In this document: one piece after another, positions 44,498 to 50,208 of the stretch
Position numbering within the stretch: position 1 is the stretch's first letter
Layout: each line of letters begins with the position of its first letter
DNA from: Escherichia phage vB_EcoM-G28
Strand: one strand, 5' to 3'
DNA: 64,000 nt
Sequence record: NC_054916.1
The notes under the pieces: model-generated
Seen by the model: the letters and a program-made list of their open reading frames with translations, nothing else
Database searches by the model: none
Told to the model about the DNA's origin: nothing
Made by a program: the position numbers and the translations under genes

Positions 44498-45916
44498 TTA
44501 TGGATAGGTATAGATGATACCAGTTTCTAAAGCAGTTTTATGAATGATGTATCCATTACGCGATTCTTGAACATCAACTTCCGGATAGTCTTTCATCATC
44601 TTCTGAAGGGTGTAACGATGCAGGTAATATTTACTATCTGGATCGTCAGTTTTCCAATCTTTACCTTCTTCAGTCATTTTTTGGATTTCATCCATAACCC
44701 ACCAACCGCACCAGATGTAAGCTGAAGTACGGTGTGGAAGAGGATGAACATAAGGCAATTCACCTTCTGGTTCCGGAGCAACTTTATCAGTCACTTGAAC
44801 TTGACCTGTTGTTTTAACTGTTTTGCTATCATAATCAGTTGCTGCAACGACAGCAGTAACTTCAATAGTTTGACTTCCAACAGATGAGGTATCGACAGTA
44901 TATACGTTAGTTGACCCTTCTACAGGAGAAGAATCTTTCTTCCACGAGTAAGTAATTTGTGCTTCTTCTGGAGCATCCGTAACATTAGCAGTAAATGTAG
45001 CCGAAGCATCTTGCTGAACGTTAATAGAAGGAGGAGTCAATGTAACCTGTGGATTCATTGTCTTCTTATTAACTGTCAATGATACTTCATTAGAAGTAAC
45101 TTCCTTTTCATTGTAATTTTCTGCTGTTACTTGGGCTACGCATTTAATTCTTTTTACTCCACTTGTAGTTGGAGTATAGCTAAATGTAGAGCTAGTTTCT
45201 CCACCAACTTGTGAATCATCTACATACCACTGATACGTAGCAGATGCTCCATCAGGTTGAGAAGCTAAGGCAGCAGTAAATTGAACTGGGGTTCCAATTA
45301 CTCCAGCTGAAGGACTAGCAGGAGTTACTGCCAATGTAGTTGTCTGTGTCTTTTTATTAACAGTCAGTGATACTTCATTAGAAGTAACGGTTTTTTCATC
45401 ATAATTTGTCGCGGTTACTTGAGCTACACACTTGATTTTTTTAACTCCGCTTGCGGCAGGAGTGTAATTGAATGTAGCAGAAGTCGCTTCGTCTACAGGA
45501 GAACTGTCAACGTACCATTGATACGTAGCAGATGCACCTGATGGCTGCGAAGCTAAAGCAGCGGTAAATTTAACAGCTGTTCCAATTACTCCTGCTGGAG
45601 GACTATTGGGAGTTACGGCTAAGGTAGTCGTCTGAGTTTTGTTTTTGACTGTGATAGTTGTAGTAGCTTCTGCTGTTTCAGCATCAGTATCTGGAACTGT
45701 GTTTGTTGCAACTACTTTAATAGTCTTTTGACCGGCAGGTCCTTTTAGTACATAACTAAAAGTTGCTTCAGCTCCATCCTGTGGAACATCGTCTACAGTC
45801 CAAGCATAGGTAATAGTTCCACCTCCAGTTTCACCACTGGGTGTAGCAGTAAACTGCTGAGTCTGATCTATAACTCCAGTAGGTGTTTTAGGAGTTATAT
45901 CAACTGTAAAAGCCAT
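44498..45916 (-). CDS. hoc: Hoc (highly immunogenic outer capsid protein), 472 aa, with an extra tandem Ig-like domain
   Basis: Ig-like repeat units and conserved C-terminal capsid-binding region; position next to inh. Confidence 0.85.
   Translation of the reverse strand: MAFTVDITPKTPTGVIDQTQQFTATPSGETGGGTITYAWTVDDVPQDGAEATFSYVLKGPAGQKTIKVVATNTVPDTDAETAEATTTITVKNKTQTTTLAVTPNSPPAGVIGTAVKFTAALASQPSGASATYQWYVDSSPVDEATSATFNYTPAASGVKKIKCVAQVTATNYDEKTVTSNEVSLTVNKKTQTTTLAVTPASPSAGVIGTPVQFTAALASQPDGASATYQWYVDDSQVGGETSSTFSYTPTTSGVKRIKCVAQVTAENYNEKEVTSNEVSLTVNKKTMNPQVTLTPPSINVQQDASATFTANVTDAPEEAQITYSWKKDSSPVEGSTNVYTVDTSSVGSQTIEVTAVVAATDYDSKTVKTTGQVQVTDKVAPEPEGELPYVHPLPHRTSAYIWCGWWVMDEIQKMTEEGKDWKTDDPDSKYYLHRYTLQKMMKDYPEVDVQESRNGYIIHKTALETGIIYTYP
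45066..45637. repeat. Tandem direct repeat, 2 x about 286 bp, inside hoc (encodes two near-identical Ig-like domains)
   Basis: Direct comparison of 45066-45351 with 45352-45637 shows long identical runs. Confidence 0.8.
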
Positions 45917-46619: not shown

Positions 46620-46627
46620 TATAAATA
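46620..46627 (+). promoter_or_regulatory. Late promoter-like TATAAATA upstream of segE
   Basis: Exact box 29 nt upstream of the start. Confidence 0.4.
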
Positions 46628-46655: not shown

Positions 46656-47273
46656 ATGTACCACTTTGTATATGAAACAACAAATCTAATAAATGGTAAA
46701 AAGTATATAGGAAAACACTCTACTGATGACTTGAATGATGGTTACCTTGGTTCCGGTAAGGCAATTCAGCAGGCTATAAAGAAATATGGTGAAAACAATT
46801 TTTCTAGAACAATACTAAAAGAGTTTAAAACTTCCGAAGAAGCGTACATGTATGAAGAAGAAATTATAACTCCTGAAATAATAAAAAGCAAAAATTATTA
46901 TAATATGAAACCTGGTGGAATTGGTGGAATTGTTATGACTACAGAGGTTATAGCAAAGATGAAAGAATCTTCCGCTAAGAGATTTGAAAACTCACCGGGC
47001 ACGGTATTAGGTACAACTTGTTACACTAATGGAACTAAAAATATTTTTATTAAACCTGGAGAACTTGTTCCAGAAGGATTTGTAAAAGGGATGGTTCATC
47101 CTAATAGAAAGTCCAGAAAAGGATGTAAAGTCAAACCGACTACCACAGGAACTTTTTGGGTCAATAATGGTGCAATAAATAAATTAATACAACCAGACGG
47201 TATTATTCCCGACGGATTTATTAAAGGTCGTCTCATGAAAAGAGATTCTAAAGGCAAATTTAGTAAGGCATAA
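46656..47273 (+). CDS. segE: GIY-YIG homing endonuclease SegE, 205 aa
   Basis: GIY-YIG motif (KKYIGKHS...YLGSGK); position before uvsW as in T4. Confidence 0.85.
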   Translation: MYHFVYETTNLINGKKYIGKHSTDDLNDGYLGSGKAIQQAIKKYGENNFSRTILKEFKTSEEAYMYEEEIITPEIIKSKNYYNMKPGGIGGIVMTTEVIAKMKESSAKRFENSPGTVLGTTCYTNGTKNIFIKPGELVPEGFVKGMVHPNRKSRKGCKVKPTTTGTFWVNNGAINKLIQPDGIIPDGFIKGRLMKRDSKGKFSKA

Positions 47274-47275
47274 TT

Positions 47276-48784
47276 ATGGATATTAAAGTACATTTTCACG
47301 ACTTCAGTCATGTACGCATCGATTGTGAAGAGAGCACGTTCCACGAATTAAGAGATTTCTTTTCGTTTGAGGCCGATGGATATAGATTTAACCCTCGCTT
47401 CAGATATGGCAACTGGGATGGACGAATCCGTCTTTTAGATTATAATCGTCTTCTTCCATTCGGCTTAGTCGGGCAAATTAAAAAGTTCTGTGATAACTTT
47501 GGCTATAAAGCCTGGATTGACCCACAAATTAACGAAAAAGAAGAATTATCAAGAAAAGATTTTGATGAATGGCTTTCTAAATTAGAAATCTATTCAGGAA
47601 ATAAAAGAATTGAACCACACTGGTATCAAAAAGATGCAGTGTTCGAAGGATTAGTTAATCGTCGTAGAATTCTTAATCTTCCAACATCTGCAGGTAAATC
47701 TTTAATTCAGGCTCTGCTTGCGCGATATTATTTGGAAAATTATGAAGGTAAAATTCTTATCATTGTTCCAACAACTGCTCTGACAACTCAGATGGCTGAT
47801 GACTTTGTTGATTATCGTTTATTCAGTCACGCAATGATAAAGAAAATTGGTGGCGGAGCATCAAAAGATGATAAATATAAAAATGATGCACCAGTCGTTG
47901 TTGGTACATGGCAAACTGTAGTAAAACAACCAAAAGAATGGTTCTCACAGTTTGGAATGATGATGAATGATGAATGCCATCTTGCTACAGGAAAAAGTAT
48001 TTCATCTATCATATCAGGTTTAAATAACTGCATGTTCAAATTTGGTCTATCTGGTTCATTACGTGACGGCAAAGCCAATATCATGCAGTATGTTGGAATG
48101 TTTGGCGAAATATTTAAGCCAGTAACGACTTCTAAGTTAATGGAAGATGGGCAAGTAACTGAGCTAAAAATTAATAGTATTTTTCTTCGTTATCCTGATG
48201 AGTTCACTACTAAATTAAAGGGAAAAACTTACCAAGAAGAAATAAAAATTATTACTGGGCTCAGTAAAAGAAATAAATGGATAGCTAAATTAGCTATTAA
48301 GCTTGCGCAAAAAGATGAAAACGCTTTTGTCATGTTTAAACATGTATCACATGGTAAAGCTATTTTCGATTTAATTAAAAATGAATACGATAAAGTTTAT
48401 TACGTATCAGGGGAAGTTGATACCGAAACCCGCAATATAATGAAAACCTTAGCTGAAAATGGCAAAGGAATAATTATAGTAGCTAGTTATGGTGTATTTT
48501 CTACTGGTATTTCAGTTAAAAATCTGCATCACGTTGTTTTAGCGCACGGTGTTAAATCAAAAATCATTGTATTACAAACAATCGGTCGTGTATTACGTAA
48601 GCATGGTTCTAAGACAATAGCAACAGTCTGGGATCTTATAGATGACGCGGGCGTAGTTTCTAAATCAAAAACATCTTCTAAAAAATACTCGCATTTAAAC
48701 TATCTTTTAAAACATGGACTTGATCGTATTCAGCGTTATGCTGATGAAAAGTTTAATTATGTGATGAAAGAGGTTAAACTTTGA
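47276..48784 (+). CDS. uvsW: UvsW SF2 helicase, 502 aa
   Basis: Helicase motifs (PTSAGKS, DECH); size and synteny. Confidence 0.92.
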   Translation: MDIKVHFHDFSHVRIDCEESTFHELRDFFSFEADGYRFNPRFRYGNWDGRIRLLDYNRLLPFGLVGQIKKFCDNFGYKAWIDPQINEKEELSRKDFDEWLSKLEIYSGNKRIEPHWYQKDAVFEGLVNRRRILNLPTSAGKSLIQALLARYYLENYEGKILIIVPTTALTTQMADDFVDYRLFSHAMIKKIGGGASKDDKYKNDAPVVVGTWQTVVKQPKEWFSQFGMMMNDECHLATGKSISSIISGLNNCMFKFGLSGSLRDGKANIMQYVGMFGEIFKPVTTSKLMEDGQVTELKINSIFLRYPDEFTTKLKGKTYQEEIKIITGLSKRNKWIAKLAIKLAQKDENAFVMFKHVSHGKAIFDLIKNEYDKVYYVSGEVDTETRNIMKTLAENGKGIIIVASYGVFSTGISVKNLHHVVLAHGVKSKIIVLQTIGRVLRKHGSKTIATVWDLIDDAGVVSKSKTSSKKYSHLNYLLKHGLDRIQRYADEKFNYVMKEVKL

Positions 48785-49473
48785 ATTATAAATTAATATA
48801 TGATAATTTAATTAATAGAGCCCAGAATCGGGCTCGCCTTAATGGATACACTGAAACACATCATATAATTCCTAGATGTATGGGTGGTACAAATGATAAG
48901 TGTAATTTAGTAGAACTAACGGCTGAAGAACATTTTATAGCCCATAAACTTTTAGCTAAAATTCATCCAAACCATTACGGTATAATTAAAGCTGTTATAT
49001 GTATGGGGATGAATTCAAATACTCATGAAAGACACGTCAATAAATCTTACGCATGGGAACGTCGTAAAATGGCAGAACTTCAATCCGGCGAAGGTAATCC
49101 ATTTTACGGAAAACACCATACGGAAGAACATAAACAATATATGTCAAAACTCATGAAAAGTCGTCCAATTACATGGGGAAATAAAATTAGTAAAACTAAA
49201 AGAATGAACCCAACGAAATGGACTGAAGAAGCTAAAAGATTACATTCAATCAATCAATCGGGTAAAAATAACGGCATGTATGGAAGGAAACATTCCGCTA
49301 AATCTATTCAGAAAATTAAAGATAACATGCCAGATAATTCAGGAGCTAATAACCCAGCTGCTAAACCTATAGAAGTAAATGGTGTTAAGTATAAATGTAT
49401 GAAAGATGCTTCTAAAGCTACTGGATTATCAATGTACAAACTAAGAATACTTAGAAAAACAGTTAATTTATAA
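48781..49473 (+). CDS. Free-standing HNH homing endonuclease with NUMOD-like C-terminal DNA-binding repeats, 230 aa, TTG start overlapping uvsW stop
   Basis: HNH core TETHHIIPRCMGGTNDKCNLVELTAEEHFIAH; repeated N-P/N-G...K motifs and C-terminal HTH-like tail; AAAGAGG RBS before TTG. Confidence 0.75.
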   Translation: MNYKLIYDNLINRAQNRARLNGYTETHHIIPRCMGGTNDKCNLVELTAEEHFIAHKLLAKIHPNHYGIIKAVICMGMNSNTHERHVNKSYAWERRKMAELQSGEGNPFYGKHHTEEHKQYMSKLMKSRPITWGNKISKTKRMNPTKWTEEAKRLHSINQSGKNNGMYGRKHSAKSIQKIKDNMPDNSGANNPAAKPIEVNGVKYKCMKDASKATGLSMYKLRILRKTVNL

Positions 49474-49486
49474 GGGCTTCGGCCCT
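49473..49486 (+). other. GC hairpin AGGGC-TTCG-GCCCT between the HNH gene and uvsW.1
   Basis: Stem-loop seen; could be terminator/processing site or insertion-boundary structure. Confidence 0.3.
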
Positions 49487-49498
49487 TTGGAGAAAAAG

Positions 49499-49732
49499 AT
49501 GTTACTAGAATTTAAACAATTTCTTTATGAAGCTTCTATTGATGAATTTATGGGTAAAATTGCCTCTTGTCAAACATTAGAAGGTTTAGAAGAACTTGAA
49601 GCTTATTATAAGAAAAGAGTCAAAGAAACTGAATTAAAAGACACTGATGACATCTCTGTGAGAGATGCTTTGGCAGGAAAAAGAGCTGAATTAGAAGATT
49701 CAGACGATGATGAAGTAGAAGAAAGCTTTTAA
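49499..49732 (+). CDS. uvsW.1: UvsW.1, 77 aa (start MLLEFKQF)
   Basis: Size and synteny; acidic C-terminus. Confidence 0.7.
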   Translation: MLLEFKQFLYEASIDEFMGKIASCQTLEGLEELEAYYKKRVKETELKDTDDISVRDALAGKRAELEDSDDDEVEESF

Positions 49733-49741
49733 ATTAAAAAA

Positions 49742-49764
49742 GGCCCAACCGAAAAGGAAGGGCC
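49742..49764 (-). terminator. Hairpin GGCCC...GGGCC followed by T6 on the minus strand
   Basis: 5-bp stem, long loop; T-run on minus strand. Confidence 0.35.
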
Positions 49765-49787
49765 AAAACTATAGACTAAAGGTCACA

Positions 49788-49955
49788 CTATAGCAAAAGT
49801 TGTGTTTCATTTAATTGTTCTTCCGAACTTTCTGAAACTGGTAGTTCTTTAATGTAATTATAGCAAGGCCCAGGATGTACAGGACCTTTGTCTGTTTCAA
49901 CAACCAATGCAGAATCGATTGGAGTTTTACAGACAACACAAATCTTATCTGACAT
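49788..49955 (-). CDS. Small Cys-containing protein, 55 aa (uvsY.-2 position), possible zinc ribbon
   Basis: Hand-translated (MSDKICVVCKTPIDS...PGPCYNY); strong GAGGAG RBS. Confidence 0.5.
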   Translation of the reverse strand: MSDKICVVCKTPIDSALVVETDKGPVHPGPCYNYIKELPVSESSEEQLNETQLLL

Positions 49956-49983
49956 GATTGTCTCCTCTGAATTATATATCTAT

Positions 49984-50208
49984 TTATACAACTCTCATAT
50001 GCATATCAATGCCCATATCTTTAGAATAAAAATATTCATCAAGATATCCAGCAAATTTTCCTTTAATATAAAGGACATCTTCACCACATGGATGGTCGGC
50101 CAGGATACGAATATCCTGACGCTTAAGATTATACTTTTTCATTAAGAATTGAATTTCCGTTTCAAATTCTTCTTCATAATTAAAAGCATCATCAATGTTA
50201 TATCTCAT
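49984..50208 (-). CDS. Hypothetical protein, 74 aa (uvsY.-1 position)
   Basis: ORF, synteny. Confidence 0.6.
   Translation of the reverse strand: MRYNIDDAFNYEEEFETEIQFLMKKYNLKRQDIRILADHPCGEDVLYIKGKFAGYLDEYFYSKDMGIDMHMRVV

Follow-up and report, generated by a model that had tools for sequence, protein, structure and literature searches.

The free-standing homing endonuclease genes of bacteriophage T4 are described as promoterless genes that overlap their upstream neighbours and are down-regulated (PMC2988022). One of these enzymes, MobE, is necessary for making a strand-specific nick and for high-frequency inheritance, and an internal hairpin of its own gene terminates 30-50% of the transcripts, which has been read as limiting endonuclease expression (PMC2790892). 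Another free-standing gene, segE, lies between inh and uvsW, and uvsW is given as its target gene (PMC2988022, Table 1); the table of T4 endonucleases in this 2010 review holds none at the junction between uvsW and uvsW.1 (PMC2988022). At that junction, a stretch of 64,000 nucleotides (nt) from Escherichia phage vB_EcoM-G28 (sequence record NC_054916.1), which was analysed as a whole and is called here the window, carries an open reading frame (ORF) with an HNH motif. This HNH ORF most probably encodes an active or recently active free-standing homing endonuclease of the T4 Mob type, in which a MobE-like HNH domain is joined to two NUMOD3 repeats and an I-TevI-like tail, and whose gene sits inside the 3′ end of uvsW. 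No description of an endonuclease at this junction was found in the literature searched, a search that left subscription journals mostly outside its coverage. The ORF is already annotated, as 'homing endonuclease' in phage T6 (BBF63601.1) and as gene 'mobD' with the note 'MobE' in Yersinia phage PST, so that it is not a new sequence, and its product is an ordinary uncharacterised member of the Mob type.

The layout of the locus is as follows.

46656-47273, + strand: segE, a free-standing homing endonuclease gene of the GIY-YIG family (Pfam SegE_GIY-YIG, E 3e-9)
47276-48784, + strand: uvsW, helicase of 502 amino acids (aa) (Pfam UvsW_N, ResIII, DEAD, Helicase_C)
48781-49473, + strand: HNH ORF, 230 aa, TTG start, 4-nt overlap with uvsW (PHROGs phrog_655, 'homing endonuclease', 3.9e-60)
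49472-49487, + strand: hairpin with a UUCG tetraloop after the stop of the HNH ORF, GGGC-TTCG-GCCC at 49474-49485, part of the resident backbone
49499-49732, + strand: uvsW.1, 77 aa, ATG at 49499, preceded by GGAG at 49489-49492 (Pfam UvsW-1, E 5.8e-29)

As an earlier sequence-only reading of this DNA had proposed, the 230-aa ORF starts inside the uvsW stop codon, the TTG at 48781-48783 overlapping the TGA at 48782-48784. This start is backed by the N-terminal residues MNY, which are common to T4 MobB-E and to 11 lineages of homologues, and a start at the next in-frame ATG (M33) would lose the two adjacent histidines of the motif. Across the region, identity is 99.1-99.2% with Escherichia phages AV121 and T6 and 98.9% with PST. 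In T4 the locus reads segE, uvsW, uvsW.1 with no ORF between the last two, so the same reading was right about the place of segE and about the lack of an endonuclease at this junction; segE of the window is itself about 99% identical to that of T4. In the window, uvsW is flanked by endonuclease genes of two families, GIY-YIG and HNH (Pfam), as had also been claimed.

A pairwise global alignment of the window with T4 sets the limits of the insertion and divides the locus into several zones.

Up to about 48633: about 99% identity to T4
48634-48766: patch divergent from T4, the last ~45 codons of uvsW
48767-49455, + strand: insertion proper, 689 base pairs (bp), absent from T4 (pairwise alignment)
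48770-48773, + strand: Shine-Dalgarno-like GAGG, 7 nt before the TTG, supplied by the substitute codons AAA GAG GTT
49456-49473, + strand: resident uvsW terminal codons AAA ACA GTT AAT TTA TAA (KTVNL*), now the C-terminus and stop of the HNH ORF
From 49456: match to T4, except where the T4 reference has its known error, at the boundary of uvsW and uvsW.1, and for an indel of 3 nt within uvsW.1

The flanks of the insertion are about 99-100% identical to T4, and its ends are uncertain by 3-4 nt because AAA stands at both of them. Downstream, the sequence AAAACAGTTAATTTATAA followed by GGGCTTCGGCCC corresponds to the T4 uvsW tail plus its hairpin, and the 18 nt of the KTVNL* tail (last five codons and stop) are identical to the uvsW tails of T4 and of two further relatives (L021 and L022; L numbers label the compared loci). 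Since the HNH-minus phages L021 and L025 carry the hairpin GGGCTTCGGCCC too, the 3′ GC hairpin is not part of the element. The ORF does end right before this hairpin, as the sequence-only reading had it, but T4-type backbone, not insertion, makes up this hairpin as well as the final 18 nt of the ORF. In exchange, the cassette gives uvsW a new tail, AAA GAG GTT AAA CTT TGA (KEVKL*). Judged from the alignment, the insertion site is thus inside the 3′ end of uvsW and not in the intergenic spacer, which upholds the extra insertion relative to T4 claimed earlier but moves its point from the space between the two genes into the last uvsW codons. An independent confirmation of this in-gene point comes from three lineages in which the C-terminal tail of the HNH protein equals the native UvsW tail of HNH-minus relatives (KTVNL in the window, IKQVEI in SP18 and MKQVDL in PSD2002). 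The GAGG is absent from the T4 uvsW tail (AAA ACA GTT), it is found likewise within AAAGAGGT in PSD2002 and L013, and it may act as a ribosome-binding site for the HNH ORF. As to the indel, it adds an Asp to the acidic C-terminal tail of UvsW.1 in the window (49499-49732), which reads DSDDDEVEESF as against DSDDEVEESF in T4.

The boundary error deserves comment, as it bears on a very different explanation, in which uvsW would be a single gene split by the endonuclease or the ORF would be encoded in an intron. The records of PST and UFV-AREG1 name the flanking ORFs as uvsW halves, and the T4 reference record shows a single fused uvsW of 587 aa. However, this fusion is a known sequencing error, uvsW and uvsW.1 being separate in T4 and its relatives (PMC1524935; PMC6486255). 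In the T4 reference NC_000866 (L003:2678-4441), the frame error reads AATTTAATAAGCTTCGG against AATTTATAAGGGCTTCGG at 49470-49490 of the window and produces the 587-aa ORF; it propagates to the split-gene labels 'uvsW-A/uvsW-B' or 'uvsW_1/uvsW_2' of PST, UFV-AREG1 and others. Moreover, in each of the 30 empty loci of the survey, uvsW ends at a stop of its own and uvsW.1 comes after it as a separate ORF. With regard to an intron, the region around the HNH ORF gave no Rfam match to a group I intron at E <= 1, with one chance match to a microRNA model as the only hit, and the gene is consequently taken as free-standing; it sits between two complete ORFs. A split or intron-borne origin is therefore hardly credible.

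The encoded protein can be divided into three parts.

48847-48954, + strand: HNH nuclease core, aa 23-58, YTETHHIIPRCMGGTNDKCNLVELTAEEHFIAHKLL, defined by invariant or near-invariant alignment columns
49060-49146, + strand: NUMOD3 repeat 1, aa 94-122, the best stretch of Pfam PF07460
49255-49329, + strand: NUMOD3 repeat 2, about aa 159-183, QSGKNNGMYGRKHSAKSIQKIKDNM, with limits from the sequence pattern and the I-TevI alignment
49360-49461, + strand: C-terminal module of two strands and a helix-turn-helix, like the I-TevI DNA-binding domain

The HNH motif is complete and not degenerate: in alignments of 28 and 30 sequences, H27, H28, C33, G35, G36, N42, L46, E50, H51, A54 and H55 are invariant or nearly so, and H27, H28, N42, H51 and H55 reproduce the HH...N...H arrangement of the HNH (beta-beta-alpha-metal) superfamily. 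The NUMOD-like repeats announced by the sequence-only reading correspond to two stretches of NUMOD3 (PF07460, E 7.6e-14, 51.8 bits against a cut-off of 20.4), which is the only Pfam family matched by the whole protein. For the C-terminal ~60 residues, phmmer gives a match to 1i3j, the I-TevI DNA-binding domain (E 0.006), and the tail matches the C-terminus of T4 I-TevI (tblastn, E 3e-5) and is I-TevI-like by Foldseek (probability 1.00). An AlphaFold2 model with a mean predicted local distance difference test score of 85.8 shows strand-strand-helix at residues 25-61 and a tail of two strands plus a helix-turn-helix. A sequence search of the PDB found the I-TevI DNA-binding domain alone, with no HNH structure and no I-HmuI.

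Within T4, the closest relatives of the protein are the Mob endonucleases.

T4 MobE: 51% identity over 106 aa, E 1e-31, the best T4 match
T4 MobB: 44% identity, E 9e-26
T4 MobD: 57% identity over 75 aa, E 4e-25
T4 MobC: 43% identity, E 4e-19

Of the two groups named earlier for comparison, Mob-family and I-HmuI-like enzymes, the first shows similarity in the nuclease domain (MobB-E); no similarity to I-HmuI was detected. The blastp similarity to the T4 Mob proteins is limited to residues 1 to ~105-122, and the C-terminus is unrelated to theirs. With MobB, MobC and MobD the protein shares the nuclease domain MNY...HHIIPRCMGG...NLV.LT..EHF.AH at 43-57% identity, but these three have other C-terminal domains and other insertion sites, and their genes lack a 5′ coding hairpin. 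The likeness to MobE goes further: each gene is free-standing, lacks its own promoter, overlaps the stop of the upstream gene with its start, carries a GC-rich hairpin at the same 5′ codons and is linked to a block of polymorphisms in a neighbouring gene. On the other hand, mobE occupies the nrdA/nrdB site and encodes 141 aa with no similarity past residue ~105, and so without the NUMOD3 repeats and the I-TevI-like tail; early and middle promoters serve it, in contrast to a presumed late promoter here, so that timing probably differs, and the hairpin of the HNH ORF has no U-tract. In the case of I-TevI, the likeness is confined to the DNA-binding domain, since its catalytic domain is GIY-YIG and its gene lies in an intron. 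SegE, for its part, is also encoded by a free-standing homing endonuclease gene adjoining uvsW and present in the window too, but its nuclease family is unrelated, its gene flanks uvsW on the other side, and T4 has it. By its domains and location, the HNH protein is best classed as an enzyme of the Mob type that has a DNA-binding module and a site of its own. Orthology with MobD or MobE, as the PST labels would have it, was considered and rejected, as the site is the uvsW 3′ end (mobE, nrdA/nrdB; mobD, nrdC.11/mobD.1) and the similarity is found only in the nuclease domain. The labels 'mobD' and 'MobE' are consequently misleading, as is 'uvsW-A/uvsW-B', and should not be propagated.

A protein search found full-length homologues with 54-70% aa identity, and every one whose locus was read, in 11 other lineages, lies between uvsW and uvsW.1. 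These lineages comprise Klebsiella phage Roth17, Shigella phage SP18, Escherichia phage PSD2002, Morganella phage Rgz1 and seven metagenomic lineages. Counting the window, 11 of the 12 lineages show a 4-nt overlap between the start codon and the uvsW stop, and the remaining one (L016) an overlap of 1 nt. Five lineages start with TTG, one with GTG and six with ATG, the non-ATG codons occupying the conserved MNY position (window 48781, L005:2942, L006:4001, L013:3001, L015:1645 and L010:3001). In the SP18 record the start is placed at a later ATG, which would drop the HH motif and was probably mis-called.

Among close relatives the gene is sporadic, as expected for the additional mobile-element insertion proposed by the sequence-only reading, and far from universal. 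Besides being absent from T4, it is spanned in 47 of the 749 phage records matching positions 48200-50000 (~6%), and the ORF alone likewise retrieves 47 records at at least 95% identity. A second sample, obtained by searching IMG/VR with a UvsW.1 profile, gave 33 usable T4-like loci.

HNH gene present at the junction: 2 of 33 loci
Junction empty, with -3 to 68 nt between the genes: 30 of 33 loci
Unrelated ORF of 119 aa, a DUF3307 membrane protein (L051): 1 of 33 loci

The last case (L051:2145-2504, IMGVR_UViG_2974786931_000001) is a hydrophobic ORF with ATGA overlaps at both ends (Pfam DUF3307, E 2.9e-13), and it indicates that the uvsW/uvsW.1 junction takes cargo other than the HNH gene.

The presence of the gene goes together with a variant 3′ end of uvsW.

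48649-48784, + strand: variant block at the 3′ end of uvsW, linked to presence of the HNH gene; the final ~135 nt of uvsW differ from T4 by ~30 substitutions

This block consists of a dense cluster at 48655-48692 (VKPKSANTKKKYV changed to VVSKSKTSSKKYS), scattered silent changes and the new tail KEVKL*. All nine HNH-plus copies read (window, T6, PST, L020, L023, UFV-AREG1, Killian, ZN18 and PYPS2T) have it, and the four HNH-minus relatives read (T4, L021, L022 and L025) do not; polymorphisms farther upstream in uvsW show no link to HNH status. As a query, the 156-nt variant end found 47 records at at least 95% identity, one at 90-95%, and the rest at 90% or less or in part. The 47 records with the ORF and the 47 with the block are most likely the same set, given that the 40 spanning records listed match the full query, block included, at 96.8-99.2% identity. 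A like pattern of neighbour-gene polymorphisms linked to the endonuclease is known for mobE and nrdB (PMC2790892).

The coding sequence itself seems well preserved. The nine tequatrovirus copies are all 693 nt long, with a TTG start and no internal stop, and their variable codons (27 with synonymous changes only and 9 with amino-acid changes, over ~136 synonymous and ~551 non-synonymous sites) give a ratio of non-synonymous to synonymous change (dN/dS) of ~0.08, which indicates purifying selection. Such strong selection would also suit a domesticated nuclease that benefits the phage, either by excluding the markers of co-infecting relatives or by acting with UvsW and UvsW.1 in recombination or repair, homing being secondary or lost; the stop/start overlap with uvsW in 12 of 12 lineages and the location kept in a recombination gene cluster across the sampled phage lineages could be taken in the same sense. 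Nevertheless, its sporadic presence, in ~6% of matching records and two of 33 IMG/VR loci, is the pattern of a selfish element rather than of a useful core function, and MobE, the nearest relative to have been characterised, acts as a mobile element, so that we deem domestication quite improbable.

A further trait shared with mobE is found in the 5′ coding region.

48818-48835, + strand: hairpin GAGCCC-AGAATC-GGGCTC, nt 38-55 of the ORF, positional equivalent of the internal terminator hairpin of T4 mobE

In the same codons, T4 mobE has TTCCCGAGC-TCAG-GCTCGGGAA, and no comparable 5′ coding hairpin was found in mobB, mobC or mobD. All 12 lineages carry a hairpin of 6-9 bp within ORF nt 32-57, built from at least seven different stems and often with a GAAA loop, and the nine tequatrovirus copies have it unchanged; it falls in the most variable part of the HNH peptide. 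The hairpins alone fold at -10.4 to -14.4 kcal/mol and the 39-nt region around them at -12.0 to -17.6 kcal/mol, more stably than synonymous recodes in every lineage (500 recodings of the same peptide, of which a fraction of 0-0.032 was at least as stable). From this conservation and covariation, a regulatory role of the hairpin appears well supported, and it may be exerted through termination, translational attenuation or RNA processing. A role as terminator of the minus strand is ruled out, as no minus-strand gene reads into the hairpin.

Regarding transcription, the only candidate signal of the late type lies before segE.

46620-46627, + strand: T4-type late promoter consensus TATAAATA upstream of segE, a putative promoter by its consensus

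This is the sole exact plus-strand match from there to uvsW.1, with none between it and the HNH ORF, and is therefore the likely transcription start for segE-uvsW-HNH-uvsW.1; over the window, the consensus occurs 24 times against 9.7 expected. A sigma-70 scan, whose scope does not extend to T4 late and middle promoters, was uninformative (13 sites against 17 in shuffles). The HNH gene would thus probably be transcribed late, from the promoter before segE, as part of a segE-uvsW-HNH-uvsW.1 message. Its translation would probably be low, depending on coupling to uvsW termination, a weak TTG start and the GAGG 7 nt upstream, and the hairpin 37 nt into the ORF would probably damp expression further, like the internal terminator of mobE. 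This expression picture fits that of the free-standing endonuclease genes of T4.

Several observations weigh against an active or recently active Mob-type homing endonuclease with a mobE-like control. The HNH core falls short of the Pfam cut-off (PF01844, E 0.006, 17.1 bits against 21.4; HNH_5, E 0.077), and fold searches with the whole model returned weak HNH-domain matches only. None of the 12 lineages has a U-tract after the 5′ hairpin, which may consequently not terminate transcription as that of mobE does, and its interpretation as a classical intrinsic terminator is unsupported. In the case of immunity, Roth17 and SP18 are HNH-plus and keep T4-like sequence at the 48655-48692 cluster, so this cluster is no general immunity determinant, and the proposal that it acts as one is weakened. 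The linked uvsW substitutions could confer added immunity or could be a co-conversion tract from a divergent donor, and for the 48655-48692 part the pattern of Roth17 and SP18 favours the divergent donor. The insertion alone, by parting the uvsW 3′ coding sequence from uvsW.1, could destroy a site that spans the junction. A position-by-position contrast of 12 occupied with 24 distinct empty junctions, lineages that are not independent of each other, gave as best separating position TAT against TAC in an NY codon within TTACGTAATGAAA (Fisher p 0.0009), which is not significant after Bonferroni correction (p 0.077) and serves as a lead only. Some 20 nt before the insertion point, TTACGTAATGAAA is frequent among empty sites, whereas none of the 12 occupied ones has it. 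Finally, in the sublineage of Yersinia phage ZN18 (L056) and L020, a G35D change affects the near-invariant CMGG motif next to the catalytic HH in an otherwise intact ORF; it could be an initial step towards inactivation or simply be tolerated.

This G35D substitution is also what could be expected if the gene were a defunct or dormant relic, kept by linkage (through cutting of uvsW by SegE and homing in trans) or because its deletion would harm the uvsW tail. The precise loss of the HNH gene must indeed also restore the terminal codons of uvsW, segE is only 1.5 kb away, and for mobE and I-TevIII it is known that a neighbour can drive the homing of a dead endonuclease in trans (PMC2790892). 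Even so, all nine copies are full-length with an intact motif and evolve at a dN/dS of ~0.08, and the homologues of five phages lacking segE (PSD2002, Rgz1, L010, L012 and L013) are intact at the same site, which makes a relic unlikely.

The preferred reading, that of a homing endonuclease still or recently active, would imply the following pathway. If an HNH-less relative, for instance T4, took part in a mixed infection, its naive DNA in the region of the uvsW/uvsW.1 junction would be nicked or cut by the enzyme. Recombinational repair from the HNH-plus genome would then transfer to the recipient both the HNH gene and the uvsW 3′ block next to it. Immunity of the carrier would come from the insertion splitting the site, from the linked substitutions, or from both.

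Elsewhere in the window, the hoc gene (44498-45916, - strand) encodes 472 aa, compared with 376 aa (1131 nt) in T4. A 288-nt unit repeated in tandem at 45059-45634 (2.0 copies, 77% identity) accounts for one extra immunoglobulin-like domain, and the T6 record splits this hoc stretch into two separate coding sequences.

The analysis adds four points on this locus: how exactly the insertion is built, which part of uvsW is linked to it, that T4-like phages infecting several hosts keep the same site, and that a mobE-like hairpin covaries. The homing endonuclease map of the T-even phages thereby gains one more occupied site, the 3′ end of uvsW. The locus also illustrates cleanly how a conserved gene can receive a free-standing endonuclease gene at its end without harm, the newcomer giving it a substitute tail and borrowing the original tail and stop. 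As the gene is present in T6, a laboratory workhorse, the predicted homing should be easy to test. With the hairpin in 12 lineages, what had been observed in one case, the internal terminator of mobE, is extended over an entire clade, and a testable regulatory element is offered. More tentatively, as a possibility that we would not yet call probable, the uvsW/uvsW.1 junction may long have served as the homing site of a single HNH lineage among T4-like phages that infect several enterobacterial hosts, with an enzyme that reads the conserved uvsW 3′ coding sequence and a hairpin that is a self-limiting expression element inherited with the MobE-type domain, acting without a U-tract by, for example, translational attenuation or RNase processing. 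If so, uvsW, together with segE, would be driven from both ends in T6-type phages.

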